A stretch of DNA of 64,000 nucleotides, from the IMG/VR virus record IMGVR_UViG_3300017767_000007, one strand, 5' to 3'. Positions 8,829 to 52,700 of this stretch are shown piece by piece; positions within the stretch are counted from its first letter, which is position 1; each line of letters opens with the position of its first letter. Made by a program: the position numbers and the translations under genes. Source of the DNA: an uncultured virus (IMG/VR IMGVR_UViG_3300017767_000007). Lineage: Duplodnaviria; Heunggongvirae; Uroviricota; Caudoviricetes. The notes beneath the pieces were generated by a model, which was not told the origin of the DNA, did no database searches, and saw only the letters and a list, made by a program, of their open reading frames with translations.

Positions 8829-8972
8829 ATGAGCGAACATCATAGGTTTTGTGAAAAGGTATACTGTAAGTTTTGTGGCTTTGCTACAGGAATTATGGAA
8901 GCGTCAAAGGCAATGGCTGGTAAATGTCCCCACTGCAAAAAAGAAGGGGGGTTGATGCCTCTTGGGTATTAA
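8829..8972 (+). CDS. Small zinc-ribbon protein
   Basis: CKFC...CPHC from ATG 8829. Confidence 0.5.
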   Translation: MSEHHRFCEKVYCKFCGFATGIMEASKAMAGKCPHCKKEGGLMPLGY

Positions 8973-10446
8973 CACCACTCGTATGAGCCTTTTAAGGTCA
9001 AAAAACGATATTAAGTATTTCTATGAATGGTTAGGTTATACATGGGGAGAGCATATAGATGAATGGGTCAATCTTTATACTGATAGAAAAGATGCACAGG
9101 TTCACAGGACTTGTATTATTGCGCCTCGTGACCACAGTAAATCAACAACCCTCCGTATTGTATTGCTACACCATGCTCTTTTTCTAAAGTGGCGTAGCAA
9201 ACCTTTTACTTGTTGGTTGTTTTCCGCAAGCAGGGATACTGCTTCAAGGCGTTTACAAGAAATAAGAGAAGATATTCTAAAGCATCCTGAATTGTCAAAG
9301 TATCTTGATACTAAGCGTGGTGGCAAATATGAATTGTTTTTTACTAATGGCGCATGGATAAGAGCCACATCTGTTGGTTCTGCTATTCGTGGTGAGCATC
9401 CAGCCTGTATTGCTCTTGACGATGTTCTTATGGATATGGGAGATATGTCAATGGATTCAGTTAGAGGTTGGCTTAGAAAGGTTGTCACTCCTATGTTGTC
9501 TCCAGGAACCAGCCTATATTGTGTTGGAACTCCTATGGCTATGACTGATATTTACCATACTGAAATGTTAGGTAATAAGGTTTGGAAAGCAGGCGTTTGG
9601 TCTGCAATCCTCAATTGGGATGAATACAAAGCCGACCCTGATAATGTTAAGCCAGAATGCCTTTGGCCTCAACATAGACCCATAGATTTTATACTTGAAC
9701 AAAAAGAGGCTATGCAGGAATTAGAATTTACTCAAGAATACCTTTGTAGAGTTATTGATGAAGATTCACAAGTATTCCCAAGAAAGATAAGCCGTCAAAA
9801 TATGGATATGGAATTAATGTTAGAAAAGGAAAAATTTCATGATGGCAAGTATGTAATTGGTTTTGACCCCTCACATGGATTAGGAAAAGACTACTCAGTC
9901 CTTGTAGTATTGAGGCAAGACTCGGATGGTTACATTTATCTCGTTGATATTTGGAGAAAGAATGACTTTCCACCTGAAAAGCAGGTTAATGTCATAGCGC
10001 AGTATAACGAAAGGTATAACATGCCTCCTATCGCTATTGAAGATGTAGGGTTTCAAAGGTTGTATAATGCCATACTTATGCAAAAGGGAGTTACTATTGA
10101 TTACAGACCGTCTAAAGCAAGCAACAAATCCCTAAAGCAAGGGCTGATGAGCAGACTTAGAGCATGGTTTGAACAAGGGAGAATTGTATTACCCTTCGGA
10201 GATGAACCGACTCGCAGGGTTATCAGATTATTTTTAGAAGAGTTAGAAAGTCATGCCTGGAAAAATGGTGACATAGTGGACTTAGGAAAACACAATGATA
10301 TGGTTATGGCCTTCGCTCACGCCATAGACCAATTCATTATGCCAACCAAACATGAGTCATTTAGTATGTCAAGCACTTCTCTCAACAACTGGCAAAATTC
10401 TACTGAATCTCCAAAACCTGGCGGAAAATTCCCATTTTTCTTTTAA
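8962..10446 (+). CDS. terL: Terminase large subunit
   Basis: Walker A variant APRDHSKST, Walker B IALDD, VGTP coupling motif, nuclease IGFDPS and HNDMVMA. Confidence 0.92.
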   Translation: MGINTTRMSLLRSKNDIKYFYEWLGYTWGEHIDEWVNLYTDRKDAQVHRTCIIAPRDHSKSTTLRIVLLHHALFLKWRSKPFTCWLFSASRDTASRRLQEIREDILKHPELSKYLDTKRGGKYELFFTNGAWIRATSVGSAIRGEHPACIALDDVLMDMGDMSMDSVRGWLRKVVTPMLSPGTSLYCVGTPMAMTDIYHTEMLGNKVWKAGVWSAILNWDEYKADPDNVKPECLWPQHRPIDFILEQKEAMQELEFTQEYLCRVIDEDSQVFPRKISRQNMDMELMLEKEKFHDGKYVIGFDPSHGLGKDYSVLVVLRQDSDGYIYLVDIWRKNDFPPEKQVNVIAQYNERYNMPPIAIEDVGFQRLYNAILMQKGVTIDYRPSKASNKSLKQGLMSRLRAWFEQGRIVLPFGDEPTRRVIRLFLEELESHAWKNGDIVDLGKHNDMVMAFAHAIDQFIMPTKHESFSMSSTSLNNWQNSTESPKPGGKFPFFF

Positions 10447-10533
10447 TATAAAGTTTTTTTTCAGAAATTTTTTTTGTGTATTATGCGCTCTGGTGGGCGT
10501 TAGGTTAGTACAAAAAATCTTTTTTTTTGTCAT

Positions 10534-10543
10534 CATATATAAG
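10534..10543 (+). promoter_or_regulatory. TATA box for leader transcript
   Basis: CATATATAAG about 35 nt before a structured non-coding region. Confidence 0.5.
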
Positions 10544-10576
10544 CATTTACCATACTACTTCATATACTTGAATGAA

Positions 10577-10864
10577 TAGGCTTATTTGTCCCCGATGGCG
10601 GGGGCGGGGGGGCGACTTCCTACGGCATGCGTCGTGAAAAGTATGGCTATAGTAGTGTAAACTACGGTGGTGTTAAGGGGCGAAGCGTATAAAAAAGTGT
10701 TAAGGGTTCATAGGTGTAGAAACGCTACAAATCGGTTAGATGCCGAACCTATGGGCGAAGCCATAGCACTATCCAAAAAACGGATGTATAGCCATAGACC
10801 TTCCCGATGCGAAGGTGATACGATAGGTGATTGACCGATAAAACAAGTATAGCGAATAAGCCTA
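10577..10864 (+). ncRNA. Candidate structured ncRNA / long 5' leader
   Basis: Closing stem 10577-10588/10853-10864, inner 10-bp stem 10642-10651/10787-10796, several hairpins. Confidence 0.6.
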
Positions 10865-10915
10865 AGCCGAATAAATACGGGCGATAACGAACAAACCAAA
10901 AGGGGGTGTTTACGG

Positions 10916-11287
10916 ATGGCAAAAAACCAACCAAAGGCACAAACAAGCGTGGTTAAAGCGACACCAAAAACGCAACTTAACGCAATGGGGAAGCGCACAA
11001 AGCGTGGATTCAATGCGGAAGGTGTAGCGAATGGCTTGAATAAGGCTATTCGATGCGGTGAAGACTACTTAGAAGCATACTATATGGGCGAATACTACCG
11101 TTCATCAAATGCTTGCGACGGTGTAATTGCATTCATTAACGGTGCAATTCAATATGCCGAAGCGTATGTGGTCAAGGCTTCCGACGATGGCAACGACCTT
11201 GATGCAATGACTTCCAAGTCCATTGCTAAAGCGATAGGTTATGTCAAGATGTTAGAAGGCTTAACGCACACCAAGCAACAAGTTTGA
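10916..11287 (+). CDS. Hypothetical early protein, basic N-terminus
   Basis: GGGGGTG RBS; contains no CAG/GAG/CTG/CTC in any frame. Confidence 0.75.
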   Translation: MAKNQPKAQTSVVKATPKTQLNAMGKRTKRGFNAEGVANGLNKAIRCGEDYLEAYYMGEYYRSSNACDGVIAFINGAIQYAEAYVVKASDDGNDLDAMTSKSIAKAIGYVKMLEGLTHTKQQV

Positions 11288-11332
11288 ACCAAGAATGAAT
11301 AAGACATGAATGGCGAACTAACCCCCATAAGA

Positions 11333-11643
11333 CACACATTATGTGTGAATCCCATGCTTAGACCTAAGCCGTTCTTTAACGGGGTGTGATTTTGACACCA
11401 ACGATAGCAACGGGGGACTTAACGGGATTAACAAGGCGACCCATGCCATAATGAATAGATGGGCGAATATGGATAACGACACAATCCACGCATCACATAG
11501 CGATAGATGTGACCCTTTGGCCGAATGGGTGACAATCGGCCACCCTAACGGATAGGGGGATTGCATACGCTTCTAAAGGATTAAGTTGAATACCTAAAGG
11601 CGCACATGATAAACCCATGAATGTGCGTGTGTGCATCCCCCCC
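11333..11643 (+). ncRNA. Candidate structured ncRNA
   Basis: At least eight adjacent hairpins and nested stems in an intergenic gap. Confidence 0.6.
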
Positions 11644-11649
11644 GTAATT

Positions 11650-11844
11650 ATGGAAGAATACAATATAAACCAATTTTGTATAGGTTGCGAAACCATACAT
11701 CATAATTCAATCGTAATGGTTGAAATCGAAATGCAATTAATAGACGGGTCAATACTTGACTTCAAATTATGCGAAAGGTGTTATGCCACTATGAAAGCAC
11801 CACAAGAATGCGTGGCAATATTAGTTAAGGGGTATGAAGCATGA
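11650..11844 (+). CDS. Small zinc-finger protein
   Basis: CIGC...CERC; likely ATG 11650. Confidence 0.55.
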   Translation: MEEYNINQFCIGCETIHHNSIVMVEIEMQLIDGSILDFKLCERCYATMKAPQECVAILVKGYEA

Positions 11845-12032
11845 AGTCCCTATACATGCGAAATAGAACCCTATACAACCAACTACAAAGGCAATGTGCC
11901 GAATACAACAAGAAGGCACTACAATGGTGTTTCAACCGCCCAAGCATGGGGTATGCTATGATACACCCAACCGAAGATAAGGTAGTTATCTTCGATACAA
12001 ACAATAACACAATCACCCTTAAGGAATTGTGA
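11841..12032 (+). CDS. Hypothetical protein
   Basis: ATGA overlap with previous gene. Confidence 0.55.
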   Translation: MKSLYMRNRTLYNQLQRQCAEYNKKALQWCFNRPSMGYAMIHPTEDKVVIFDTNNNTITLKEL

Positions 12033-12448
12033 ACATGGTGGATTGGGTTGGGGGTCATGCCCCCTTCCCGACCATACACATGTTAGGAAACATTGTAATT
12101 GAAGGCGAAGTAGTTGTAGCACTTTGTTTGATTGTTGGCTTGATGCTTGGATGGTATCACGCACACATGAAGGCATTTGCTATGGCGGAACAAGATGGAA
12201 CACCAAAGCGTAGGCACAAATACTTCAATATACCCGTTATATTGGATATGCCTGAAACCCTGAAATATACGGGGCATTTAGGATTGCTTGAAGATGCAAT
12301 AGCATCAATCAAGGGATTGTCTGAATTAGCCGACGACGATAAGGAAGACCATCAACTTCATCTAAGATTGATGAAAGACCATTATAGACATGCGGAAGAT
12401 ATACTTTTTGATATTGGATGCGGTCTCGGTGAAAGAAGTCACGAATAG
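12029..12448 (+). CDS. Hypothetical protein with one TM helix
   Basis: VVVALCLIVGLMLGW segment. Confidence 0.55.
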   Translation: MNMVDWVGGHAPFPTIHMLGNIVIEGEVVVALCLIVGLMLGWYHAHMKAFAMAEQDGTPKRRHKYFNIPVILDMPETLKYTGHLGLLEDAIASIKGLSELADDDKEDHQLHLRLMKDHYRHAEDILFDIGCGLGERSHE

Positions 12449-12491
12449 ATGAATACCCATAATCCGACATGATACGGGGTCGTAATGAAGT

Positions 12492-12527
12492 CATAGGGGG
12501 TTCGCCCCCTATGGCTTCCCTTTTTTT
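12492..12527 (+). terminator. Hairpin + T-tract terminator
   Basis: CATAGGGGG-TTCG-CCCCCTATG then T7. Confidence 0.8.
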
Positions 12528-12553
12528 ATTTGTATAACACCAGATCTGCAGAT

Positions 12554-12742
12554 GAGATCTCCCCCGCAACCAAAAAAAATACTGCGTTCCTGCTGCTGCA
12601 CCAGATGAGGTCTGTATATGTAAAAAACACAGCGCCAGCCTGCTGCTGACGAGATCTCCTACAAAATAGTAAAAAACATCTGCGAGGTCCTGGGACCTCC
12701 CCCTGACAGACAAAACTAAAAGATAGCGCAGGCTGCTGCTGA
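12554..12742. repeat. Degenerate ~48 bp tandem repeat (about 4 units; further copy at ~13304-13355)
   Basis: Units of GAGRTCT/GGACCT ... A-tract ... GCG ... CTGCTGCTG. Confidence 0.6.
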
Positions 12743-12743
12743 T

Positions 12744-13079
12744 TCAATCTTCGTCAGGCCAGCAACTGCTGCATTCGCATCCAACATAGCACCAGGGTTC
12801 TTCAGACTTAGGCTGCAAAATAATCTTTGGTGGGCCTGCATCTTCAGCCCAGGGGTCAAATTCTTCTTCATCAGCAACAACAGGTTCTTCCTGGTGAAGC
12901 GTTTCCAGCATCCACAGGACGGATTCAACTTGGTCAGGTCTTAGCTGGCCATTGTTCTTGTTTACAGGAATCTGGGATTGGAACGCCTTATTGCAGGAAG
13001 GGCAGACCCATTTGTTGCCCAAGCAGGCCTCCATTACTATGCCACATTCGCAGGCAATCTGTACAGAAATCTGCATCAT
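12744..13079 (-). CDS. Zinc-ribbon hypothetical protein
   Basis: CECG...CPSC and C-terminal CECSSC. Confidence 0.55.
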   Translation of the reverse strand: MMQISVQIACECGIVMEACLGNKWVCPSCNKAFQSQIPVNKNNGQLRPDQVESVLWMLETLHQEEPVVADEEEFDPWAEDAGPPKIILQPKSEEPWCYVGCECSSCWPDED

Positions 13080-13219: not shown

Positions 13220-13370
13220 GTAACTGCTACTACTAACTACTATATAAGTCTTTAAGAGGTCTCCACAGATGGTTATATCGGGAGAATTTAGCCTGCAGGC
13301 CAACAGATCTCCCCAGCCAGCATAATAAACAAAAAAAGCTGCGCCTGCTGCTGGCAGGCTTCCCAAACGG

Positions 13371-13407
13371 AAAAAGCTGATGCAGGGGCCTGAACCCCCG
13401 CACCAGC
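13371..13407 (-). terminator. Hairpin + T-tract terminator
   Basis: Minus strand GCTGGTGCGGGGG-TTCAGG-CCCCTGCATCAGC then T-run. Confidence 0.65.
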
Positions 13408-13555
13408 GGCCACCTGACTAAACAGGGTAATGCCCCATGAAACCCCGAACAGATCTCATAGGGCGGTTATGCGGTTGCTGTATCTGTGCCTTCCTCATCA
13501 CACGCATATCGGTATCATAACCTGCAAACCTGAAGATTGCTGCTAAGCTGAAGAA

Positions 13556-13891
13556 TCACTTCTTAGCCTTTGCTGCTTTTTTCTTCGGTGCTGCTTTAGC
13601 TGCTTCCTTTGCTTTCTTTGCGTCTGCAAGGGCTGTTGCCGTCTGCTTTGCCATCAAGGTTGCTCCCATAAGGTTTGTTGCTGCCTTTACTGTCTTAGCT
13701 GGGTGTGCCTCTACATTGCATAGAATAAGGTTCGCTACTGCTTCGCTGCTTACCACAAGGTTGCTGAACTCCTCTTCCGAAATGTTCCCGTCTGTTAGCT
13801 GTTGCATGTTATACATCTCAACTAATCTGCGTTGCTTGTTCACGGTATCGCAAATCTGCTTTTGCTGTGCGTCTCCAAATTTATTTGTCAT
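13556..13891 (-). CDS. Hypothetical protein with histone-H1-like Lys/Ala tail
   Basis: GGAGGTGG RBS before ATG 13891 (ORF track extends to 14005); ends AKKAKEAAKAAPKKKAAKAKK. Confidence 0.7.
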   Translation of the reverse strand: MTNKFGDAQQKQICDTVNKQRRLVEMYNMQQLTDGNISEEEFSNLVVSSEAVANLILCNVEAHPAKTVKAATNLMGATLMAKQTATALADAKKAKEAAKAAPKKKAAKAKK

Positions 13892-14303
13892 CTTTTCCAC
13901 CTCCTTCCCCTCTTGTCGTGGACTTTTTCGACCTGATTGGTCGGGCGTATTGCTGTCGCAATCTGATGGTATCGGGGCATCGCTACCTGTCATTATTTCC
14001 GCCATGAATCAGTTATTGCATCCAAGTATATAAGTGTTTAGCAGATGAGCACAGGGGGTATAATCACGATTTTTAGGCAGGTCTCCACAGCATGTTGGCT
14101 CAGGAAAAAGTAATCTGGTATGTCAGGTAAGTTTCCTGGCAGTACCTCACAGTTAAAAAAGATAATCCCTGCAATAAAGTTTATATCAGACCTCCTACTA
14201 AAAATATAATATATCAGTTCCTGTTCCTACAATCTCATAGAGGCTCAAGAACAGCACACTTCTTGGATTTCAAAATCAGGCTATTCCTCCAAACCTTTAA
14301 GTA

Positions 14304-14525
14304 TCAGATATCACATTCACAGGCAAATACAGCATTTGGAGCACCCTTCATACCAGCAGCCTGATTGTTGCCACCGCAGGTTTTACAGAAATGCTTCACA
14401 TTCAGCATACAAGAGGTATCATTGCAAAATCCTGTTCCATCAACATCAACACCGCAGATGCAGGTTTCGCTGGTGGTAGCACAAATAATGCAGGAAGGGG
14501 GACAAATATCAGGCATCAAATACAC
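14304..14525 (-). CDS. Cys-rich hypothetical protein
   Basis: ORF track; multiple CxxC. Confidence 0.45.
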   Translation of the reverse strand: MYLMPDICPPSCIICATTSETCICGVDVDGTGFCNDTSCMLNVKHFCKTCGGNNQAAGMKGAPNAVFACECDI

Positions 14526-14794
14526 CGCCAGCGTGTAGGAGGAGTTACAGTTTTACCACCAGGTTTTACTTCACCGCAGGAACATTCAGCAACATGAGGG
14601 AATTGAATCCTTGACAGTTTATTCAGCAAGATTGCAGATACTTCGTGTATGCAGAAGCCATCACCATGTTCAGCAACAACAGGTTTACCACCTATTTTCA
14701 GGCTGAACCATTCAAATGATTCCAGACTATCAGGACTATACCGTATATGAGTATGCCCCAGACTTTCTATTTCTATTGTGAAACCAGCAACCAT
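14516..14794 (-). CDS. Hypothetical protein
   Basis: ORF track; coupled to neighbours. Confidence 0.5.
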   Translation of the reverse strand: MVAGFTIEIESLGHTHIRYSPDSLESFEWFSLKIGGKPVVAEHGDGFCIHEVSAILLNKLSRIQFPHVAECSCGEVKPGGKTVTPPTRWRCI

Positions 14795-15126
14795 CAGATG
14801 TCACCCCACTTCAGGACTTTCCTGCTTTTGTATCTTTCAAAGCCAGATTTTTCTCCACCAACAGGATGCGGGATAACATTTTGCAGGCCGATGAAGAACA
14901 TCAGGTCATGGAGCACCATCAGGTTTTCTTGGTGGCATAATCGCAGACTTACCAGTTTTCTATATGCTATAATTTCAGCAATTTCAGATATACCCATGTT
15001 CAGGACATCAGGCCATTCTTCTTTTTCGACCAGCGACATCAGTTTTCTTCTATACAATTCAGGGATATATTCTATTCCCAAATGTTGCAGGTATTCCTCC
15101 AATGCTTCATCTTCAATCAGTGACAT
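14794..15126 (-). CDS. Hypothetical protein
   Basis: ORF track; coupled; heavy CTG usage. Confidence 0.55.
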   Translation of the reverse strand: MSLIEDEALEEYLQHLGIEYIPELYRRKLMSLVEKEEWPDVLNMGISEIAEIIAYRKLVSLRLCHQENLMVLHDLMFFIGLQNVIPHPVGGEKSGFERYKSRKVLKWGDI

Positions 15127-15400
15127 CAGATTTACCCCACAAGTTCAGATTATACCATACAATACCAGCAACAACAGGTTTTTCCCTAATATCCGCACCA
15201 GATTGCAGACAATGCAGGCTAACGGGTGTCGCTACAGTTATGTTCAGGTGACCAGACCATATAGATACTTCTAACAGGTAGTCAGGTGTGTCGAGATTAA
15301 CCAATTGTTCATCAGTTAATCTGTCTTTTCGTTCTTCAGATTTTGTCAGGGATTTCCCCCCTTCAGGTTTTTCTTCCATGTTATGAGGTAGTAAGTTCAA
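15113..15400 (-). CDS. Hypothetical protein
   Basis: Likely leaderless ATG 15379 after TATA at ~15404. Confidence 0.5.
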   Translation of the reverse strand: MNLLPHNMEEKPEGGKSLTKSEERKDRLTDEQLVNLDTPDYLLEVSIWSGHLNITVATPVSLHCLQSGADIREKPVVAGIVWYNLNLWGKSDVTD

Positions 15401-15634
15401 GTATATAAGGTTTTAGCAGGTCTCCTAAGCAAGCCAAATCAAGCCATCAGGTCTCCTTTTATCGTTGAGATAGATAATATATTGTGTGTCTGGAGGTAGC
15501 ATCTGTCACCATGAGCGATAAAAAACCTAAAAAGCCTCTATTCCTGCTGCTCGACTTCCCAACAGACCTCCCAATCAATAGACTTTGACAGGCATCTGTG
15601 GCCTTCTGCATGGATAATAGACCAAAATTCAGAT

Positions 15635-15901
15635 TTACAATATTGACAGATATACCTCTTCACCAGTTTCCTCCCCATCATATACTATCTCACCGAACAG
15701 ACGAGTAAATTCTGCACCGTATGTTTCCCAGCAATTAAATTCATTGCATCTGCTTGAACAGGCTGGACCTGAACAATCGAGGAAATTTGGGTCATGTGTG
15801 AGAAACCACTCATGTTGCTGTTTTGTAATTGGTCGCCACAGATATTCAGTTACCATCTGATTCAACCTCCTTAACTGCGTCAAGCAGGGATATGTCGTCA
15901 C
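15635..15901 (-). CDS. Hypothetical protein
   Basis: ORF track. Confidence 0.45.
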   Translation of the reverse strand: MTTYPCLTQLRRLNQMVTEYLWRPITKQQHEWFLTHDPNFLDCSGPACSSRCNEFNCWETYGAEFTRLFGEIVYDGEETGEEVYLSIL

Positions 15902-15976
15902 ACTTCAGGCAACGGCTGGTATCACCAACAAGAGCCATCATCTGCGAACAATTGATACAAGCACGAGGAATACTGC

Positions 15977-16453
15977 TTAACATCTTAATTCCTCATCTGT
16001 GAACCACAAGTCATCATGGTTGGCTGTTCTATCTCTTATTGCCATTAGAATATCTGATGGGATTGTGAAATAACTGCCCTTGCCTCGTGTGAAGTCATAG
16101 TCAGTTCCTGTATTCATCCAACCTATTGTTGCCTGTTTGTACTGTTTGAACCATTGCATCTGCATAAACTGTGTCACAAGTTTTTGCCTGATAGTGTATT
16201 CGGCCTGTAATGGGACATTTGCGTCTGGGCAATGATGTTCCCTGCACCAATTTTCCCACAATTCATCTGATAATGCTCCTTCATGTTCAAGGATTATCTG
16301 TTCCCTGTCTTCGCTGTTCACCCAACCCATAATTCCTGATTCTGCGAAGTCCCATGCGTAGGGCTCCTCTTCCTCTTGGGTTGTTCCTGCTTGCTCATTC
16401 GTTAATTCCTGCCATCTGTATAGATGGTATGGAATCGCTGTTTCTTTTTCCAT
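15977..16453 (-). CDS. Hypothetical acidic protein
   Basis: ATG about 24 nt after TATA at ~16477. Confidence 0.7.
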   Translation of the reverse strand: MEKETAIPYHLYRWQELTNEQAGTTQEEEEPYAWDFAESGIMGWVNSEDREQIILEHEGALSDELWENWCREHHCPDANVPLQAEYTIRQKLVTQFMQMQWFKQYKQATIGWMNTGTDYDFTRGKGSYFTIPSDILMAIRDRTANHDDLWFTDEELRC

Positions 16454-16627
16454 ATTACGAGATAGATAGTTCCAATATATAAGGTTTTGGCAGAAGTTAT
16501 CTGTTTATTTTAATCAAGCAATCTGAATCGCAGTCGAAGCATACCAAATGCAGGGTATCATACGAATCTCCAACAGCAATGATATTATCGCTGCCACAAT
16601 CTGCACATGCCATGTAAAAATCTGAAC

Positions 16628-16897
16628 TCATACTTTCCACCCGTCTGCTGTTGCTTGTGCATCTGCAATCTTTTGAATCTTGTCAGACCATTCCTGCGTA
16701 TAACCACCTTCCCTGATAATCTGTCCGATGGTTTGTCCGTTATCAAGCCTCAAATACAGAAATCGTCTGGCCATGTCAAGGCTCATTTTATCTATTGGAA
16801 TCTCCTCAAAGAAGGTATGAGCAAGTGCTCCTATTATGCCCTTTAATTCGTGAATCTGCATTTCTGCCTTTTCTAAATCGGTAAAATCTGGATTCAT
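16628..16897 (-). CDS. Hypothetical protein
   Basis: Likely ATG 16897 just after stop of upstream gene. Confidence 0.55.
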   Translation of the reverse strand: MNPDFTDLEKAEMQIHELKGIIGALAHTFFEEIPIDKMSLDMARRFLYLRLDNGQTIGQIIREGGYTQEWSDKIQKIADAQATADGWKV

Positions 16898-16898
16898 C

Positions 16899-17453
16899 TC
16901 AATGACCACCACTAATGCTGGCTTCGTAGTAATCTGATTCGTATTTGGATATCTCACATTGCTCATCTTCGTCGTGAACATAATCTGCAAACTTGGTATA
17001 TTCCTCACAATCTGTATTACCATCGAATAAATCCCAGATATACTCAAACGCCCTATCCAGTTTTACTGATAAATGATTGTAAAGATTCCAAAAACTGCCG
17101 TAAAATGCTGGTTTGGCTACAATTGGCTCTTCGCTGAAGTGTTGCTTTGTCGTCTCCATACCCTGTATAGCGCATGAATAGTGTCCTGCTAATTTCAACA
17201 AAAGATTCTTTTGCTGTTCCATCTCTTCTTTAGTCCAATTTACATAATCTGGTGTAGCATCGTTATATCTGATTGATGCACCTAAAACTGACATAAGCCA
17301 TTCCGCCTCAATAACGGGTGGGGTATCTGGAACGCAACCAAATCCTGTAATTGCATTTTCCATTGCCTGTTTTTCCTCATCACTAAGATTTTCCCTGATT
17401 ATAATAGGTTTATCTGGTGCTGGTAATCTGAAATATTTTTCAATATCTGTCAT
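16899..17453 (-). CDS. Hypothetical protein
   Basis: ORF track; promoter at ~17507. Confidence 0.65.
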   Translation of the reverse strand: MTDIEKYFRLPAPDKPIIIRENLSDEEKQAMENAITGFGCVPDTPPVIEAEWLMSVLGASIRYNDATPDYVNWTKEEMEQQKNLLLKLAGHYSCAIQGMETTKQHFSEEPIVAKPAFYGSFWNLYNHLSVKLDRAFEYIWDLFDGNTDCEEYTKFADYVHDEDEQCEISKYESDYYEASISGGH

Positions 17454-17616
17454 TCGTTCTTCACTTCCCTGCTTTCTTTTCGCATAATATCAGATAGACC
17501 TAACTTATATATAAGGTTTTGGCAGATCTCCACAAGTCGTTCAGACGCCCAACATGGGGGATATAGGGAGTATCAGCAGGCGCAATTTCATGTGAGCACA
17601 AGATAAAAAACCTGAA

Positions 17617-17967
17617 TCATTCTTCTTCCTGCTGCTCGTCTTCTATGAATGCTTGCAGATGTTTTTCCGCCCTGTCTAACTCATCAATCTCTTTGTCATC
17701 ATCCCATGTGCAGGTTTTAAGCCAAACTGATGATACACCTGTATGGTCTGCATGTAATTCCCAATGCCACAATCGCTGGTTACTGTAATGTAGGTCGCCA
17801 AGAGGACAATGTGTTCTTTCCAGTAAACTATCTATTCGCAGGTTTACTGCAAGACTAATTTCTGATTTAGCAAAGAGGCTGATATGCTCAATACCGTATC
17901 TTGTTTTACATTTCTCTAACAACAGCAAAGAATCTTTGCTATTCCTGATTAGGATTTCGTAGGCCAT
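17617..17967 (-). CDS. Hypothetical protein
   Basis: ORF track; promoter at ~17992. Confidence 0.6.
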   Translation of the reverse strand: MAYEILIRNSKDSLLLLEKCKTRYGIEHISLFAKSEISLAVNLRIDSLLERTHCPLGDLHYSNQRLWHWELHADHTGVSSVWLKTCTWDDDKEIDELDRAEKHLQAFIEDEQQEEE

Positions 17968-18080
17968 GTATTGAGGTAAATACTAATAGTATTTATAGTT
18001 TTAGCAGACCGCATGAGCACTAATACAGATTCAGATCTCCTACGCTAAATACTTATATACTATTACTAATTACCTCTATT

Positions 18081-20022: not shown

Positions 20023-21189
20023 ATGAATGAAACAGATTTAGATATAGCAATGGGTATGCTGGAAGATGATGCAAAGGCCAGCAAAGCCCGTCAAGAACGC
20101 AGGAATAAAGCCATTGGGCGAAGGAAAGAGATAGAGGAAGAGTTTACAAGCAGGGTCATTGAAGCCCTTGAATCAGGCTCACCTCTTGGAAAGTGGGATA
20201 TAGGCCACAATGCTGCTGACCATCTTGGCGGAGGCTTCCCTCTTAACTTCAAAACAGGCAAACATTATCGTGGTATAAATGTATTTTTCCTGTGGTTTGC
20301 TCAAATGGATTCTGGAGGCTCATCTAAGTGGGGAACGAGGAAACAATGGTTCGACTATCTCCAAAGACTCTATGACAGCATTACCAAGAAGATGCCTGAA
20401 CACATGAAACCAGATATCAACCAATTCATACCTGAGGCTGGCGAGGGTTCACCTATTGTATTCTATAAGCCTGTTAAGGGTAAGAAGAAGGACAAGGCAA
20501 CAGGCAAACTCACTGACAAGGATGCCTGGATTCCGATGATGCGAGTTTATGAAGTATTCAATCAGGGGCAACTCAAACTTGACCCTGTTCTCAAAGCAAT
20601 GATGGGTCTGGAGGCACCAAGAGAATTACCTGAAGATGAAAGGGAAGCGAGGTGTTGGCAGATTGTTAATGATTATGTCAAGCGAACAGGTATCACCATA
20701 GAGCATAAAGGCACTTCCTCATATAACATGGATTCTGGAGGTAAAGATAAGAAGGGTCTGGTTGTGACTCCCGAAAGGGACTTCTTCAAGACACCAGCAA
20801 TATTCTGGGGTCATCTGTGGCACGAATTAGTGCATTCAACAGGTCACGCTCTTAGACTTAACCGACCTAAATCCTCCAACCTCAACACATGGACTGAAGA
20901 TGATTATGCTGACGATGAGATGTGGGATAAGTTATCTCGTGAAGGCTCTTATGCAAGGGAAGAACTCGTAGCGGAATTAGGTGCTGGTATGCTATGCCTG
21001 ATGATGGGCTTTGAATACGACACCAGACATGCAATATACCTCAAGTCATGGATTGCTGCTCTTAATGACGACCACTCAATGATTATCAGGATGGCTACGG
21101 CTGCTCAAAAGGCTCTTGACCTCATCTTAGGAACTGAATACGACAATAAGGAGGACGCTGAAGATGGCGCTGAAACCTCCGAATCCTGA
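20023..21189 (+). CDS. ardC: ArdC-like ssDNA-binding antirestriction protein with zincin domain
   Basis: PLNFKTGKHYRGIN, YEVFN, HELVHSTGH, YAREELVAELGA, YLKSW motifs. Confidence 0.85.
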   Translation: MNETDLDIAMGMLEDDAKASKARQERRNKAIGRRKEIEEEFTSRVIEALESGSPLGKWDIGHNAADHLGGGFPLNFKTGKHYRGINVFFLWFAQMDSGGSSKWGTRKQWFDYLQRLYDSITKKMPEHMKPDINQFIPEAGEGSPIVFYKPVKGKKKDKATGKLTDKDAWIPMMRVYEVFNQGQLKLDPVLKAMMGLEAPRELPEDEREARCWQIVNDYVKRTGITIEHKGTSSYNMDSGGKDKKGLVVTPERDFFKTPAIFWGHLWHELVHSTGHALRLNRPKSSNLNTWTEDDYADDEMWDKLSREGSYAREELVAELGAGMLCLMMGFEYDTRHAIYLKSWIAALNDDHSMIIRMATAAQKALDLILGTEYDNKEDAEDGAETSES

Positions 21190-29360: not shown

Positions 29361-30026
29361 ATGAAGATAATTGCCCTTAGTGGGAAGATGAGAAGCGGGA
29401 AGACTACACTCGGTGCTCTTTTGGAAAAGCACCTCAATGGATGCAAAAGGGTATCATTCGGAGATGAAGTGCGAAGAGAAGTGGCTCGTGGTATGGGTTA
29501 TGACTCTAACGATTGGAAGTTCCCTTTTACTACTCACGATAAGAAAGCACTAAGACCTGTTCTTCAAGCATGGGGACATAATATGCGTAAAGTTAGAGGG
29601 GAACGATATTGGATAGACAAACTCATGACTCGTATATTGGGAGATACAATTTACAATGACGACCAAATCTGGGTCATTGATGATGTGCGATATCTCAATG
29701 AATTAGAAGCAATTACAGAATTAGAATACGATGGTATAGGCTCATACCAATACCACATAATCAGACTTGAATGTAGTGAAGAAACTCAAATCAGAAGGGG
29801 ATGCGACCCATCTAATATGAGCCATGAATCTGAAATTGGGTTTACTGACTATACTTGGAATCACCCATATACAGATGTTATCCATTCCGATAACGATGAC
29901 TGCACTAATCTATATGTTACTGCTATCACTAAGTTATATGATATAGGTTTGATTGAAGATTATCAAATGAAAGATGCAATAACTGACTTTCAGTTCTATT
30001 CGGGCAAGGTTGAATCATGGCAGTAA
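29361..30026 (+). CDS. dNMP kinase-like P-loop kinase
   Basis: SGKMRSGKTT, SFGDEVR, RPVLQAWG, IDDVRYLNE. Confidence 0.8.
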   Translation: MKIIALSGKMRSGKTTLGALLEKHLNGCKRVSFGDEVRREVARGMGYDSNDWKFPFTTHDKKALRPVLQAWGHNMRKVRGERYWIDKLMTRILGDTIYNDDQIWVIDDVRYLNELEAITELEYDGIGSYQYHIIRLECSEETQIRRGCDPSNMSHESEIGFTDYTWNHPYTDVIHSDNDDCTNLYVTAITKLYDIGLIEDYQMKDAITDFQFYSGKVESWQ

Positions 30027-31655: not shown

Positions 31656-32014
31656 TATGTCGCTGTGGAATGATTTGAAAAATAAATTAGATGAAACAAT
31701 ATCTCGAATAGAAGAATTAACTTCTGCAAAGGAGTCAGTTGAAAACTTACTGATTGACCTTGAAGCATTGGATTTGCCTGACGGGATAGAAGGCTCGCAT
31801 CATGCTGAAATGGAACTGAATGATACACTTTCTTCAATAGAAGAAGAATTGCAGGAATTACAAGGCAAGGTGGCTCACCTATGACATGGAGAGCGTGGAG
31901 GCCTCAAGTCAATGTGGCTCAAAACTACAAGTGTTTGAAGTGCGGTCACATCTATCTGGCTTATCCATTGAATACGAAATGTCCTAAATGTTAATCTGTT
32001 AAAACCTTATATAT

Positions 32015-38635: not shown

Positions 38636-39811
38636 TTGATGCAATTGACGAATGATATAGTGCTTGAATGTGAGGTGCCAACTGATGATGCACTTCAGTA
38701 TGCTCTCGACATGTATGACATTGAAAAGGGTGCAGGATTAAAGACTGTCATTCCCGATAGAATCAATCCCCCTGAAGGTTGGGCTATTGGTGCTATTGTA
38801 GGTGCTTCTGGTGCTGGTAAAACAACGCTATTAAGTAATCGTTTCGGACACAATGAGGATGCAATCATACCCACCGATGGCAGTTCTGTAATATCGAACA
38901 TATCACGCATTTTGGGTGGTAATCCTGCCGAAGCATCTCGTATTCTATCAAGTGTCGGATTGGGGTCTGTCCCTGCTTGGATTAGACCACCGTTTTGCCT
39001 GTCAAATGGTGAACGATTCCGATTTGATTTGGCCTGCACTATCGCAGATGCCATAGCAAATGACATAGAAATTATCACCATAGATGAGTTTACATCTGTT
39101 GTTGATAGGAATGTAGCAAAGGCAGCCTCATTTGCGCTACAAAAGTTTGCTCGTAAGACGGGTCAAAAGTTGGTTGTCGCCTCATGCCATGACGATATAG
39201 TTGAATGGCTAAATCCAGATTGGGTTTACAATCCTCACGATGGCGAAACCGTTGTGAGCGACGACAGGGGGTGGTCGGTTCAACGACCTAAGATTGAACT
39301 CAAAATTCTCAGAGCAGAATATGATGCGTGGGACATGTTCAAGAAACATCATTATCTGACCGAAGATTTGAATAAGGCATGCAGATTATTTGTTGCTTAT
39401 TGGGATGGAAAACCTGTTGCCTGTAATGCTATTCTTCCATTCCCTAACGGTGGCATACAGAATGGTTGGCGTTCTTCTCGTGTTGTAGTATTGCCTGATT
39501 ATCAAGGATTAGGATTAGCGGGTGCATTGTCTGAATTTGTATCTTCTATGATAAAATCTCAAGAAGGAAGATTATTTGCTCGACTACGCCACCCTGCCTT
39601 AGCGAATCACAGATTGAACCGACCTAATACATGGAAAGAAACAGCCGTATCTCGCAAAGTGCATACGCATTCAGGTAATGAAGAATGGGGTTGGAAACAG
39701 AATGACCGTGAATGCTGGTCTTTTGAATACATTGGTGAACCATCAAGTCTGCATGACGCAGAACTGTTTTGGGGTATAAAATTTGAATCAGACAAACATG
39801 AGTGGCTATAA
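38636..39811 (+). CDS. ABC-type ATPase fused to Mom-like GNAT acyltransferase
   Basis: GASGAGKTT, LSNGE, ITIDEF, ASCH; then FKKHHYL and SRVVVLPDYQGLGLA; no TM partner. Confidence 0.8.
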   Translation: MMQLTNDIVLECEVPTDDALQYALDMYDIEKGAGLKTVIPDRINPPEGWAIGAIVGASGAGKTTLLSNRFGHNEDAIIPTDGSSVISNISRILGGNPAEASRILSSVGLGSVPAWIRPPFCLSNGERFRFDLACTIADAIANDIEIITIDEFTSVVDRNVAKAASFALQKFARKTGQKLVVASCHDDIVEWLNPDWVYNPHDGETVVSDDRGWSVQRPKIELKILRAEYDAWDMFKKHHYLTEDLNKACRLFVAYWDGKPVACNAILPFPNGGIQNGWRSSRVVVLPDYQGLGLAGALSEFVSSMIKSQEGRLFARLRHPALANHRLNRPNTWKETAVSRKVHTHSGNEEWGWKQNDRECWSFEYIGEPSSLHDAELFWGIKFESDKHEWL

Positions 39812-46293: not shown

Positions 46294-46755
46294 TTAATTT
46301 ATAATTTCCAAGTGTGGCGACCACCATACTTCTCTATGCTCAAAATGCTTCCAAGTACTGTTAGACATAATTTTTTTGGCTTCAGAATGTGCAAGTTTAA
46401 TATAACCTAAATTGCTGACAACGCTCTTTAACTGAGACATTTTCGATTCTTCAATTGGATTTAATACTGCTACAATCGGTTTTCTAATTCGTTTGTTTCT
46501 TTCCTGTAAAATTTTAGTGTGATAACCTTTACCTCTAAAACCTCTCTTAACATAGGTATTTCCGACCAAAATAAAAGAATCTATGTATGCTGTGCAAGTG
46601 TATGCCACTGGGACATCTCCTTCATACAAAAACCAATATGTCGCAAAATCAAAAAGAGGTGGATAGCCCTTTTCTGTCGCTGGAATAATTTTTTCTCCCC
46701 AAATACTTTCAGCGTTTTCAATACCCATAACTAATTTTAAGAAAATGCTCATCAC
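46294..46755 (-). CDS. GNAT acetyltransferase
   Basis: NTYVKRGFRGKGY motif A; last gene of tail operon. Confidence 0.7.
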   Translation of the reverse strand: MMSIFLKLVMGIENAESIWGEKIIPATEKGYPPLFDFATYWFLYEGDVPVAYTCTAYIDSFILVGNTYVKRGFRGKGYHTKILQERNKRIRKPIVAVLNPIEESKMSQLKSVVSNLGYIKLAHSEAKKIMSNSTWKHFEHREVWWSPHLEIIN

Positions 46756-49700
46756 CTTGAAACTACATTTGTGTCAAAGACTTCTCCAGGACCATCAACC
46801 ATATTTGCGCCTGTTTTCATAGTTACGCTGATTGATGAAAGTTTTACGGATTCTTGAGCTGCTGTATCACCATTGATACCAGCCGCTCTTCTGATTGTAA
46901 TTTCTAAGTGATTACCTGCTACATCAGCACCTTCTATCTTTTGATTGAATAAATTGTGTCTTAAACCATTTTGGTTTATAGGGATGACAAGAGTTTCCGT
47001 TTTGCTAAATCCTGTTTCAACAACCTTTACAGTAGTGTATATCTTGGCAAACCCTTCTGCCGTTGGATTTGTATTAAGCCCTATTCCACTTGGAGTTGGA
47101 ATGGTACTTTGGTTAGTTTGAGCAGACTCTGAATGCACAGTAGTATCAACCTTAGAAAGAATAGTTACTGAATTATTTGTAACATTGTTAGGTACTACTT
47201 GTATTCCAGAAACTTCTGATACTTCGGCTTGTTCAGAATCACCAGCTGCAAATGTTCTGCCTGGCAATGAAATTCCAGTTTCGCTTAGAGCAGCACTTCC
47301 CCCCGATGGAGTAAAAACACCGTCATTAGAAACTAAAACAGAAGTTTCTATTGCTGCTGGCAATGGTCTGTCTTGACCTAATAACCCCCATTCCGAATTA
47401 CCCATAGGCACCTGCATTTTCTTTTTTAGTCTTCCCATAATGCCTTTAGATACTTGATTAATACCTATTGTGCTTGCAGTAGTGTAGCCTGTTTGACTAC
47501 CAAATGTTCCTGGTGGGGTCAATTCAGGTCTTGGTCTTGGTTTGGGTGCAGGACCTGTTGTATCTCCGCCTGGAGGCACAGGTTCGCCATCGTCTTCATC
47601 AGAATCTCCACGACCCGATGTTCCACCTGGTCCTGCTGGACTTGGTTTAGGGTCATTAATAATAGGAGGAGTCAAAAACATAGAACCTAAATTACTTAAG
47701 AAATGAGATTCATCAGTTGTTAGACCTAATACTACTTCTTCATGTCTTAGTGGGTTTATTTTCCATTGAACATTATTAATAATCAAAGGTTTGTTTGTAA
47801 ATCCATAGGTTGAATCGCTATACTGTAGAGCAGTTCCTGTTCTAAAGTTAATGTCGTCATTGATAATCAATCTCGGTGCATACCACAAAGTCCTGTCCCT
47901 CATACCAGACCCAAATTCGTCATAATATCTGCACCCAAGAGGGAATATAGACTTGTCATTATATGAACCGCTGCCGAGGAGGGTGAAGTAATTTGTCGGT
48001 GCGGATTCAACAGGTACTCCGTGAGCAGGATTTAAGATATTTCCTAATGTATCTCCACAACGCATTCTGATTAAAGATTCTAAGTATTCTCTGTTTACTG
48101 AAACTATAATTTTATTGACAATACCAGTTCCAAATGCGTATGTGGGTGGCAAATTAAGTTCAAGAAAACCATTATCCAATGAGCCATAACTAACGGTCTG
48201 TGAAAAGAAATCGTTTGCGTGGCTATGCCCTTGACCAGCTGCATTAACTGCTGCAATGTGATTCAAATCTCCTCTATTACAAGCCCCAAACCATTCTGCT
48301 TCACCTATTAGATTTGGGTCTCCATTTGAGTCAGTACCGTTAGAAGAAACAAAGCCTGTGTTTCTTGTTGCATTATCTCTGAATATAGGGTCAATAACTG
48401 TTATAATAAACTTTGCCGATGTAGCAGCCTCGTCAATTGTTCCAGGAGTAGGCGCACCACTTCTTGTCCCATCAACGCTAATAATAAATCTTAATTGATT
48501 TCCTGTTGTCATACTGTATTTAGGTAAGCCTTGAGGAACATAAACAACTTCAATAGCATTAGCAAGGCTGTTTGCACCATACCAATAATTATTTCCAGCC
48601 CAAGTAATTTCATCAGAAGCATTTACAACTGAAGCATCCCTGTTAGATGCTCCAATAAGAGGAGTATTGGTGTTATTGAGTTGGCCGTCAAGAGCACTTA
48701 CTGAACCAGAAAAGAAATTGTTGTTCATCCTTCCCATCATATAGTGCGGGTACTTACCGTATACTGTCCTTTGTGGGTCAGCAATATACCCATACCTTGC
48801 ACCATCAAGCATAACATCATCTGATTGCGTTCCTCGCACTACTTTTGCATTTAATGAAACGGGTGCTTTCTTTGCTTTCAAGTATTCTTGTTTTGCTAAA
48901 TACTCTGCTTCTGCTTTAGTTCCCACATCGGGCATATCCATAATTTTCCAGCGAATGTTTTCTGTCCCTACTACTTTTGGATAGTCACAAAATGACTTAG
49001 AATCATTGAAGTAAACTCTAACATGAGTTACTCTTTGTTGTATGCTTGTGTTCATATTAGATATATTCAAAACGCTTCTGTCGAGCGAGCGGAAAGAATT
49101 GTAGCCAGGTCTAAGTTCTATTCTGCCATCAGGACCAATTTGATAAGTAAATGTTTGTCCGAGGCCTGAAGTTCCAGTACCAGCTGCTTTTTGAATTTTT
49201 ACTATGGCACTATACATTGTTGAATTTTTAGCATTTACTACACTGCCAAAACTGTCAAATTGTGTATTATTGTGACCCCAGTGGGGACTGCCAATAGTTG
49301 CAGAGCCATTAGTGCTCATTATTTTTGTTTGTGGCACATTCTTAAAGGATGAAATACCTGTAAATTGAGATTTACCCAACCAATTTTTTGTCAAAGACAA
49401 CATATTTAAGAATCTAAACTTTTCGCTTTCAAACCATGTTCCGCTGTTTTCGTTTTCGACCTTACCAGAAATACGCATCATAAATCTCATACCACTAAGA
49501 GGAGCATACGAGTTATACGCAGTAACACTATCATAATCTTCTAAGTCAAATATCGCTCTTGAAGATGAACCGTTTTGTTGAGCAGCCTTAATGTTATTTG
49601 CTGCTATTGTTCTTTCAGCAGCAGTCTTGGTTGGAACTCCGTTCAAACCTCCTACAATATCAACGAACACATTGTTTAAATAGTTATCAACTGTATTTCG

Positions 49701-52700
49701 ACCAGACCAAGCATAATACCATGTATATGTTGTCTTTGTCTGTCCAGCTCCTTCAACTGCTACTATTCTTCCAACTCCGCTATCATCCCATTCTGTAACA
49801 TCGTCGAGGTATAACCTGTTAATTCCACTAAAATTATCTGGTTGGTTTCTTTTTACTTCCGACGCATCTTGAATAAAGTCCATTTGTTGAGGGTGAGGCA
49901 TATATGGGTGTTGAATAGTTTTGTATGAAGGCATTGCTTCAATCCAATAGTTATCCATCATAATTGGGAATCCGTGACCTACTGCAAAGTAATCTTGTAG
50001 GTCTGTCCTCCCACCACCTATTCTTCCTGTCCTTCCAAGATTTGCTTCAGTATTCACATTCCAGAATTTGCTTGTGTCAATAACAACAAAGGAACCTGCT
50101 TTATCTTCCCAATTGTGGTATATTGAATTAGAGTCAGAGTTTGAGCCAAGAGGTAAAGCAGACCAGGGTGCTTGAGTTACAGGTTCAAGCGTTGAATCTA
50201 ATTCCCATATGTCTAAGTCTTCACCAACCTTCAAATCAGCAAACTTAACAGGCGAGCCGTCAGGTTCTTCTGAATCAACAAATTCCATGCTAACACTATA
50301 ATTATTAGAAATAGGCATCATTAAACCAAACTTCTTTTTCCTTAAACCAGAATCAGCGTTAGCAGTTCCATCATTTCTCATATCAGCCCAGAGAATCCAA
50401 ATGTGTTTGTAATCGTTATCAATTTCTCTAAATCTTACAATACTTCCTGCAGAGTGGAATTTAGACAAAAATTGTACTCCTGTAATTGAAGCATAAGTCT
50501 GGTCGACTGCGTTAAAACCAGCTAAACCTGTAAATGTAAAAGAATCTACTGTTCCGTCAGCATCCACAATTTCTCCAACGCCACCTGATGTAGCCATTGT
50601 AGTTACTAATCCTATTGGGTTTCCTGTTGTTTGGTCGTTTAATGCTAATCTTGTATTTGCTATTGATACTGTTTGACCAGTTGTATATGCGTTAGGAAAA
50701 ATATCTGAAGATAATAATACATCTGGGTGATAGGTTGAACCATTTTTACCTTGACTGATTTTCTTTTCCTTGATACGCCCAAACTGCATTTGAAACCACT
50801 TAGATTTAGGCATATCTTGAATCCAACGAGAATGTACTGCTCTATATGGTCTGGCAATAGAATTATTAGCAGCAGCAAGAGGTGCAGTCGCTTGTTCGTT
50901 GCAATATTCTAAGTCAGGACTATCATACAAAAACCAGCCAACTTCTCCAGCAGTTCCTAATCCAAGCCCTGTTATTTCGTTGTGGTTATAATATAGGTTC
51001 GCTAAATCTCCATAAGTAGCGTTATATGTTCCGTTACCTAATTGAGAAACTTCAAGATAATGTGTCCCATCAATCCATGTTTGGCCTGGGTCTGGCATAT
51101 TACCAAAGCCTGTGATTTCAAATACAAGAGTTACAATCCCATCCCAATTATTACCTGTTGTCCCTTGTGGAATTTGAATTGGGTTTCCTTGAGCGTCATT
51201 CCCACCATATCTAATTACCAAGCGTTGCCCAATGTATAAATCCCAGATGTTGATATTTTCACCTGTCTTAAAGTAAAGTTTTGTTATTAAATTCCCAGCA
51301 GGTTCTGAGCCACCATGAGCATTATCAAGTATATTAGTAGCACTCCAATATTGCCAAACATTGTCGCCATTAGAATTAACTCTAAACCAACCCAACCTAT
51401 TTAACCAATCTTGCTGAGTATAGGAAAGTGTAGAATGAGCAGCATTCCAACTGGCATCAAACATTTGTCCAGCAAAAGTATCGTTATTTTGATTTTGACT
51501 TGTTGGTGGGCCTGGTAAAGCAGACCCAAACCCATTCCAACTTCTATACAAATTATCAAACGGAGTACTTCCTACAGTATAACCTCCACCAGGAACTTGT
51601 GCTCTTCCTGTCTTTGGGTTGTTAGGAATATCAGCGTCAATCAAAGCAAAATGATAACCACAATTTGAGCTCCTTGTTGTTTGTTGCCAATTTGTAGGGT
51701 CAGGAATATCTCCAGACCAAAGGGTATTAGGGTAATCGTGTTGAAGTGGTGTAATGTTTGCTGTTGTGTGCTTAACCCTATTACTGCTGGTTAATCTCAT
51801 TGGAATATCAAGGTTACCTCTTGTTAGGTCACGAGGAGTTACTGTTACTCCATTAATTGTGGTGGATGAGTCGCTTGGTAATTCAGATATTCTATTATAC
51901 CTTTGACCTGACTGACTTGCACCTCTAAAAACTCTTGTGTCTGAAATAGTAACATATTGCTTTTCCCAATCTATTAAATGTCTTGTGTTGCCTGCAGAAG
52001 AACTAACAAATTCACCACCTAAAAGAGCTGGATTTTTATAGATTTCATCGAATTGCAAAGTCCAGTAATGCTTTAGTCCTGTCTTATGCCTTCCGTCATC
52101 ATAACTGTCATTGTTGTCAATAGCCAAAATTTTACCTGATGGGACATATGTTTTGTCAATGTAAAAGTGATTTGTTGATGGGTCGTGAACTGTAAATGAG
52201 CCACTATAATTAGTTGAGCCTTGTATGTTTATTGTTTCTCCTTGAGTATATCCGTGAGCATCAGAATAAACTCTTAGTGGGTTTGTAAGTGCAGATGGAT
52301 TAGCATAAGTCGCTTCAGGCTTTTGGAATCCATAAATGTGAGTTTGACCTACATAATCGTATATAGTATCAGGTGCTCCTCCTTCTTCATTATACATTTG
52401 AATTGGGTGTCCCGAATTTAATCTCATTCTTGTTGATGTATCTGCATTATAGTTCGGTCTTTCATAACCTAAAGTACCTGTGCCTCTTTCAAGAGAAGTA
52501 GCACCTAAATGCAACTTTTCAATAAAGTTTGCAGATTCGTATGGTCGCCAGCCAATAGGTTCGGTTTCATCTATTTGTTCACTTTGTCCTACTTCCCAAA
52601 TAGGTATTGTTCGGTCAAGAGAAGCCAAATAATCTCTGGCACTCAACTTTATGATTTTTTCTCCAGGTCGGTTTTGGTTGCTGGTGTATCTTTCAATATG

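Follow-up and report, generated by a model that had tools for sequence, protein, structure and literature searches.

Positions 10588–10915 of the window, the whole stretch of 64,000 nucleotides analysed here, most likely form a structured 5′ leader RNA of about 330 nt that belongs to the gene ORF1, evolves fast, and has no known family. We infer from the sequence that this leader opens a first transcription unit reaching from 10588 to about 12530. Most of the unit lies in a desert for the trinucleotide SAG (CAG or GAG, counted on either strand and thus as CAG, CTG, GAG, and CTC), and the pattern of surviving restriction-type sites suggests that the virus marks SAG in its own DNA. The original prediction, a 288-nt noncoding RNA or regulatory leader at 10577–10864, overlooked both the SAG-free unit and the signs of viral DNA modification. 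By itself the RNA would be a new structured leader; its setting matters more.

The window probably derives from a tailed virus of marine archaea, likely Poseidoniales. Its gene content is that of a tailed virus, with terL (8962–10446), portal, PolB, clamp loader, and chaperonin genes and archaeal promoters, and we take it to be a magrovirus, a virus of Poseidoniales. The phage records searched hold no named close relative. Word counts revealed that GATC, AGCT, and CGCG are avoided across the window, and one study reports modification of these motifs in marine archaea, Poseidoniia among them (bioRxiv 10.1101/2021.05.08.442635). The close clade comprises 11 distinct sequences of this region, the window counted, which were found by terL, ORF1, and pattern scans and whose terL matches that of the window at about 80% or more where covered; terL of the distant relative G010 matches at 59%. 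One scan with a 16-nt pattern returned 33 loci, five of them already-known relatives and the others in unrelated contexts, and a second pattern returned eight, six known and two without a desert.

Three elements bear on where the RNA starts:

10533–10544, minus strand: upstream TATA box used by the original prediction; an AA-rich BRE-like stretch was seen by eye on the minus side only
10550–10567, plus strand: leader promoter (BRE and TATA), its offset shared by all 11 leaders; its BRE has no adjoining CTG
10577–10587, plus strand: 5′ arm of the originally predicted closing stem, read here as promoter DNA (−11 to −1)

In leaderless genes of this virus, the distance from the start of the TATA box to the ATG is 28–30 nt (five cases), and the same spacing from the TATA box at 10559 places +1 at about 10588. 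This start is inferred from promoter spacing, and the TATA-to-+1 offset is the same in all 11 leaders and in four leaderless genes of the window. At that offset a TATA box precedes a G/C-rich hairpin in all 11 leaders compared, and every leader shown has a G/C hairpin at or near +1. The RNA had been predicted to begin at 10577, about 35 nt after a TATA box; that box exists (10536), but the conserved rightward promoter is the one at 10559, and the upstream box is absent in three lineages (L005, L007, and L021) and looks, by eye, more like a promoter facing left. Transcription may also begin at a second site near 10565. Given a start near 10588, the predicted closing stem would draw its 5′ arm (−11 to +1) from promoter DNA, and the conserved bases of this arm are also present in lineages that lack the 3′ arm of the window.

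The leader and its parts are as follows:

10588–10915, plus strand: structured 5′ leader RNA, 328 nt (292–337 nt in 12 sequences)
10588–10605, plus strand: 5′-terminal hairpin from +1, pair probability 0.99, with a G-C to A-U change in two of four sequences
10621–10636, plus strand: covarying hairpin absent from the original prediction, with double-sided changes in L002 and L010
10642–10796, plus strand: long-range stem 10642–10651/10787–10796, with 10 of 10 pairs here and 8 of 10 in three relatives
10652–10665, plus strand: short covarying hairpin with double-sided changes in three of five pairs
10709–10753, plus strand: three-way junction, kept in four of four sequences, with a competing hairpin at 10749–10766
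10798–10816, plus strand: covarying hairpin with a conserved loop; L001 and L010 each have two double-sided changes
10870–10915, plus strand: A/C-rich unpaired stretch (A+C 0.63–0.86 in 11 leaders) with a GAG-free Shine-Dalgarno site at 10902–10908

Double-sided changes occur in four local hairpins, namely the +1 hairpin and those at 10621–10636, 10652–10665, and 10798–10816. Eight of 70 predicted pairs covary across four sequences, a number reached in 2 of 500 shuffles, though it leans in favour of the structure because the structure was derived from the same alignment. Between L003 and L040, 10 of 78 pairs changed on both sides, and between L005 and L078 one of 78 did. Covariation had been proposed as a check on the RNA, and the outcome is divided: the local hairpins covary, in few sequences, but no long-range helix does in the close sequences. 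The predicted perfect 10-bp stem (10642–10651/10787–10796) is perfect in the window and falls to 8 of 10 pairs in the three relatives, with no compensation. The predicted three-way junction is kept in all four close sequences with wobble and loop changes only. RNAalifold on a MAFFT alignment missed this junction through misalignment, and a comparison of anchored arms was used instead; RNAalifold picks the rival hairpin at 10749–10766, whose core 12-mer is also kept in L003 and L040.

Leader length is steady although distant leaders cannot be aligned, hairpins are gained and lost while the sequence drifts between lineages, and the 3′ end of every leader compared is A/C-rich and includes a Shine-Dalgarno site. 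A covariance model built from seven close leaders found only its own seeds in 34 sources and missed L006, L007, L022, and G010, so it lends no support to one fold common to all lineages. Neither an antisense target nor further copies of the leader were found within the window. In RNA libraries from four studies, shallow unstranded pieces fall within 10611–11465 in four of four runs, which had been chosen for holding the stretch. Among the pieces listed, one contig bridges the junction of leader and ORF1 (10866–11063), though the pieces may be DNA, and X1 also contains exact pieces from elsewhere. These runs cover just 0.04–0.18 of the stretch and can neither rank nor orient transcripts; they lend weak support to transcription of the leader.

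The leader stands at the head of a unit with these features:

10453–10500, no strand: A/T tracts and a conserved site right after terL, with the last SAG before the desert
10493–12251, no strand: SAG desert of 1759 nt, free of CAG, CTG, GAG, and CTC
10916–11287, plus strand: ORF1, 123 aa, with a basic N-terminus, a predicted three-helix bundle, and no known family
11288–11649, plus strand: second structured noncoding spacer, folding z −2.2 to −7.7 in nine sequences (−7.7 in L007)
11650–12448, plus strand: three more small ORFs, variable between lineages
12487–12530, plus strand: hairpin and U-tract terminator that ends the unit, with a similar element in nine of nine sequences shown
12541–12750, no strand: SAG-dense noncoding cluster past the terminator

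Within 10493–12251 we observed no SAG against 94 expected, while SAC was undepleted (91 vs 82 expected), and the next-longest SAG gap in the 64 kb spans 195 nt. Deserts of 1.4–2.3 kb are also present in the 10 remaining close sequences, some clipped by contig ends and one with a single break, and G010 has one of 1731 nt behind terL; 65 further terL loci, many with short flanks, have no SAG gap longer than 325 nt. The first SAG comes right after a hairpin and U-tract in seven of the nine sequences examined, and the window and L001 have a few SAG in the last ORF (four in the window) followed by the same terminator and cluster. Past the terminator, 150 nt hold 16–24 SAG compared to 5–8 in the background. 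Because SAG returns at the terminator, the desert appears to be one transcription unit opened by the leader. A codon-level cause was rejected since every reading frame lacks the words, as do noncoding parts, and palindrome avoidance was rejected since it is genome-wide.

ORF1 is kept across the clade and has 32 unnamed homologues, and its predicted model has a pLDDT of 75.9. Searches with it gave no Pfam, PHROGs, or NCBIfam family, no Atlas match, and no PDB fold at E up to 0.001; equivalence to the first ORF of G010 was rejected, as the two are not homologous. In the second spacer, modular hairpins come and go between lineages. Hairpin terminators are unusual in archaea, and in several relatives the terminator at 12487–12530 carries UNCG or GNRA-type loops. 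The tracts at 10453–10500 are a candidate packaging site or genome end; similar A/T tracts lie 3′ of terL in desert and non-desert relatives alike, and contig ends do not pile up after terL. Two stretches of the window, 12541–12750 and 13260–13560, are SAG-dense noncoding repeats with A-tracts. Outside the desert clade, one virus has a 1.9-kb stretch without CAG or CTG in which GAG and CTC are present (L047:8098–10022) and which apparently spans a leftward unit about 1.7 kb from terL.

Host-type restriction sites appear to survive in these viruses only where SAG overlaps them. In 10 desert or GNAT-carrying sets, 160 of 160 AGCT sites overlap SAG, compared to 471 of 567 in three controls that hold AGCT, and for GATC the counts are 31 of 31 against 105 of 732 in controls (Fisher p 8e-12 and 3e-25, respectively, for sites that are only partly independent). 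All 23 GGNCC sites of the window overlap SAG, as do nearly all GTAC sites in lineages that purge GTAC, and an unbiased scan found SAG-exempted words in four of seven desert/GNAT sets and in none of eight controls. Some of the surviving GATC sites sit in a repeated motif past the terminator. Such exemption had been predicted for a mark on SAG; its reading follows restriction-enzyme logic, and the position of the overlap matters. Overlap at S gives no protection (CTAG, CCGG, and CGCG are absent from the window), nor does overlap at A alone, with no TCGA in 31 kb of four lineages against about 25 expected at the window's rate. Protected and unprotected overlaps together indicate a footprint at the G of SAG or at the C paired with it. 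We therefore strongly infer that the virus places a mark on the G:C pair of 5′-SAG-3′/5′-CTS-3′ in its virion DNA, and that this mark shields overlapping host restriction sites. The SAS motif and modified A of a Mom-type adenine hypermodification do not fit, as SAC is not purged and TCGA overlapped at A alone does not survive.

ACGT, CCGG, CGCG, and CTAG have zero copies in the 64 kb, and seven of the nine GATC sites of the window lie within 12.5–18.1 kb. The set of palindromes purged differs genome by genome among relatives and may be a host fingerprint. An ArdC-like anti-restriction protein (ArdcN and MPTase domains) is encoded at 20023–21189 of the window and is also present in G010, G012, G013, and G016; ArdC as a strict partner gene of the desert was rejected because the non-desert G016 has it.

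Two genes elsewhere in the window co-occur with the desert:

29361–30026, plus strand: dNMP kinase-like gene
38636–39811, plus strand: ABC-ATPase and GNAT gene, the candidate enzyme for the SAG mark (GNAT domain by Pfam)

The protein encoded by the latter, hereafter ABC-GNAT, probably places the SAG mark. It has 46.7% identity to a protein of Tenacibaculum phage pT24 over 70% of the query, and ABC-ATPase-coupled GNAT proteins have been predicted to carry out an uncharacterised acyl modification of a DNA base, the passage in question giving neither motif nor base (PMC7824862). G010 was chosen beforehand for its GNAT gene alone as a test of the link between gene and desert, and it has a desert. 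Gene and desert occur together in two of two carriers, and neither occurs in nine of nine other near-complete records. Three desert fragments (37–53% complete) lack the GNAT gene, three GNAT fragments show no desert in the parts fetched, which stop short of terL, and no comparable desert is present in two bacteriophages or in a fifth viral record, all of which have a distantly related ABC-GNAT gene. The dNMP kinase gene and a 146-aa protein without known function co-occur with the desert in the same way, and the gene-desert link may be one inherited event, a question of shared origin judged here from a quick tree. The predicted GNAT model (pLDDT 43.5) was too poor for a structure search.

A motif resembling CTG-BRE also stands ahead of 29361. 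Among viruses with distant ABC-GNAT genes, Nonlabens phage P12024S has a weak 1.2-kb stretch free of CCA/TGG inside one gene and not at a leader (L239:30797–32005), and a viral contig has a 3.5-kb stretch without ACCG/CGGT (L282:2509–5994).

Promoters downstream of the first unit differ from that of the leader:

14020–18010, minus strand: second promoter class, with TATA boxes at 14034, 15409, 16483, and 17998 and CTG just upstream of the BRE; another lies at 32006 on the plus strand

Leaderless promoters have CTG beside the BRE in five of five cases in the window, four of four in L002, and one of one in L007, compared to two of six in controls. This second class carries the motif of the proposed SAG mark.

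Parallels to known modification systems are partial. The Mom protein of phage Mu, a GNAT enzyme, modifies SAS and is similar in using a short context motif (PMC13219725) and in protecting overlapping restriction sites. It differs in that the window shows a SAG-only purge and a footprint that points to a G:C pair rather than to A, and the window enzyme is fused to an ABC ATPase and has no match to Mom among PDB sequences. The ABC-GNAT family of pT24 shares the domain pair and is a predicted DNA base acylase (PMC7824862); the window pattern differs in suggesting SAG/CTS, and the distant bacteriophage members checked have no such desert. For this family, the window pattern would supply a motif (SAG/CTS) and a likely base pair (G:C). 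By analogy, the region may be viewed as a T5-like pre-early unit joined to a Mom-like protective modification, but it fails the motif test for Mom. Viruses usually avoid host sites; a first unit purged of what seems to be the virus's own mark would turn that pattern around. Searching for deserts together with site exemption may be generally useful for revealing DNA modifications of uncultured viruses from sequence alone.

For the role of the leader, we give about even chances to a cis-acting function, in which it would stabilise the message of a mark-free first unit and feed ORF1. ABC-GNAT would mark the G:C pair of SAG and so shield overlapping host restriction sites. If the first unit is kept mark-free, unmodified host machinery could read the single incoming genome at once, and the next promoters, with CTG beside the BRE, would await a product of that unit. 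The +1 hairpin and the folded body might guard the message against 5′ decay, the unpaired A/C-rich tail could allow strong translation of ORF1, and feedback by ORF1 would be possible via the competing folds at 10709–10766. Modification, timing, and RNA function in this scheme are all deduced from the DNA sequence. Counting against a cis-acting leader, a simple stabiliser would not need 300 nt, and whole-leader folding scores are modest. The part of the original prediction that envisaged a regulatory leader made very early agrees with a structured leader at the start of a special first unit, with local covariation and UNCG loops, while its earliness is a deduction. A different reason for the desert, evasion of a host nuclease that depends on modification, is equally compatible with the data. 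A tentative extension is that modification serves as a developmental switch, whereby the SAG mark shields sites and silences or gates the CTG promoters, and the RNA and ORF1 of the mark-free unit unlock the marked genome.

We consider it rather unlikely that the leader, with or without the second spacer, acts in trans as a scaffold or decoy, alone or with ORF1. Such an RNA could enable host RNA polymerase or TFB to read SAG-marked DNA, or could neutralise a modification-dependent nuclease before marked DNA is exposed. Two structured blocks of about 300 nt in a 1.9-kb unit would suit such a role, as would a length that is kept while sequence and hairpins turn over, a small, basic ORF1 that is kept across the clade, and later promoters with CTG beside the BRE. 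Against these points, there is no terminator or visible processing site to free the RNA, no fold common to all lineages, and no antisense target in the window, and the first ORF of G010 is unrelated.

An improbable reading is that the nascent leader modifies elongating host RNA polymerase in cis, or that it sets the pace at which transcription pulls in the first 2 kb of DNA, as far as the SAG cluster. The put RNA of phage HK022 is a nascent RNA that modifies elongating RNA polymerase in cis. Structured leaders and nascent antiterminators of early phage operons, put RNA among them, resemble the window in having hairpins directly behind the first promoter, in cis; the window leader differs in its length of about 300 nt, its archaeal promoter, the lack of a family match, and a unit that ends at a conserved terminator. 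In favour of this reading, the leader begins at +1 of the first promoter, and in every lineage shown the unit is bounded by a terminator and a dense SAG cluster, similar to the repeat-rich injection stop of T5 (bioRxiv 10.1101/866236). The first-step-transfer (pre-early) region of T5 would also be alike as the unit expressed first, located at a presumed genome end, and in its long noncoding blocks, structured or repeated, and repeat-rich boundary (same preprint). It differs in size (8% of the T5 genome compared to a window unit of about 2 kb), and we found no A1 or A2 homologue in the window. Further, the word purged from the unit is 3 nt long and apparently a target of the virus's own modification, and two-step entry of this virus is hypothetical. 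Other points count against polymerase modification or paced entry: a conserved terminator ends the unit, so read-through is not obviously wanted, the contig ends gave no genome end, and Rfam similarity is lacking.

Stable loops favour the plus strand. Across eight lineage representatives, we counted nine UNCG-capped stems on the plus strand and two on the minus (shuffle mean 1.7, 0 of 300 shuffles as high) and eight C-GNA-G triloop stems against one (shuffle mean 1.1), with no clear enrichment of GNRA loops. The triloop count, together with GC-GNA-GC in six of eight leaders and a DNA fold z of −2.45, raises the prospect that the hairpins act as single-stranded or extruded plus-strand DNA, as an entry, packaging, or origin signal, instead of as RNA. 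GC-GNA-GC is a very stable DNA mini-hairpin. We regard this as a poor prospect: some 7-mer common to six of eight leaders is usual in shuffles, the structure starts at +1, oligo-T is avoided, the RNA fold scores better, and G-U pairs are common.

The original prediction of a discrete 288-nt noncoding RNA, made from the upstream TATA box and closed by 10577–10588/10853–10864, is very improbable, although much of its fold description was sound. All named helices are present at the positions given for them, and the minimum free energy fold of 10577–10864 forms them apart from the 10798–10816 hairpin, which is out-competed (pair probability 0.33). This interval folds at −100.9 kcal/mol, better than dinucleotide shuffles (z −4.26, 0 of 200 as good), and one of 68 control 288-nt windows scored as low (12 shuffles each). 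The minus strand reaches z −2.03. The limits had been picked for pairing, however: the fold from the inferred start (10588–10915) reaches only −2.66, and whole leaders −1.0 to −2.7 across 11 sequences, the window among them, with −1.12 for G010. Elsewhere in the 2-kb unit, several 120-nt windows fold equally well or better. A 288-nt window at 13301 on the minus strand has a fold z of −4.58.

The closing stem would form with probability 0.93–0.95 if the RNA starts at or before 10577, for which a second start near 10565 would serve, and 8 of its 12 pairs are predicted in all four close sequences. The pairing of the ends was thus correctly seen in the window, but the three closest relatives retain 9, 10, and 10 of the 12 pairs, with middle pairs broken in all three and no compensatory change. 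The two arms vary independently, and lineages that lack this 3′ arm share the kept 5′ bases. There is no terminator near 10864 and no oligo-U before ORF1 (longest T run 2–4 in 11 leaders), the upstream box is missing in three lineages, and the RNA runs instead into the A/C-rich stretch and Shine-Dalgarno site; with its 5′ arm read as promoter DNA, a 288-nt RNA closed by paired ends does not fit. That the structure has no selected role and merely reflects a G-rich sequence purged of SAG is scarcely credible, for despite the modest z-scores of relatives and the fast turnover, four hairpins show double-sided changes, the stable loops are strand specific, and length is constant.

No family had been recognised for the RNA, and Rfam agreed: version 15, which covers SRP, RNase P, tmRNA, ribozymes, put, and large phage noncoding RNAs, gave no match at gathering threshold in the 64 kb, none at E up to 5 in 10300–12200, and none at E up to 1 in five related loci. 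ARAGORN found neither tRNA nor tmRNA. Archaeal SRP RNA is similar in its length of about 300 nt, its small 5′ hairpins, and, in the minimum free energy fold, a long stem capped by two hairpins, but the window leader differs in having no Rfam match at E up to 5, no helix-8 motif seen, an unsupported closing helix, and a run into an ORF. Our incomplete coverage of the literature returned no paper on the leader RNA or the SAG desert. In the supplement parts searched of a viral structured-RNA catalogue, five contig names had no match, and the RNA may still be listed there (PMC10690425).

Other observations concern this virus group at large. A 2537-aa protein encoded at 46752–54365 of the window adjoins the tape measure, has no Pfam or PHROGs match, and is 27–33% conserved in other records. 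We also found a 61-kb contig of the group (L333, G025:C3) in an Opitutales bin and a PolB fragment (L332) in a Rhodobiaceae bin, both of which are probably mis-binned.
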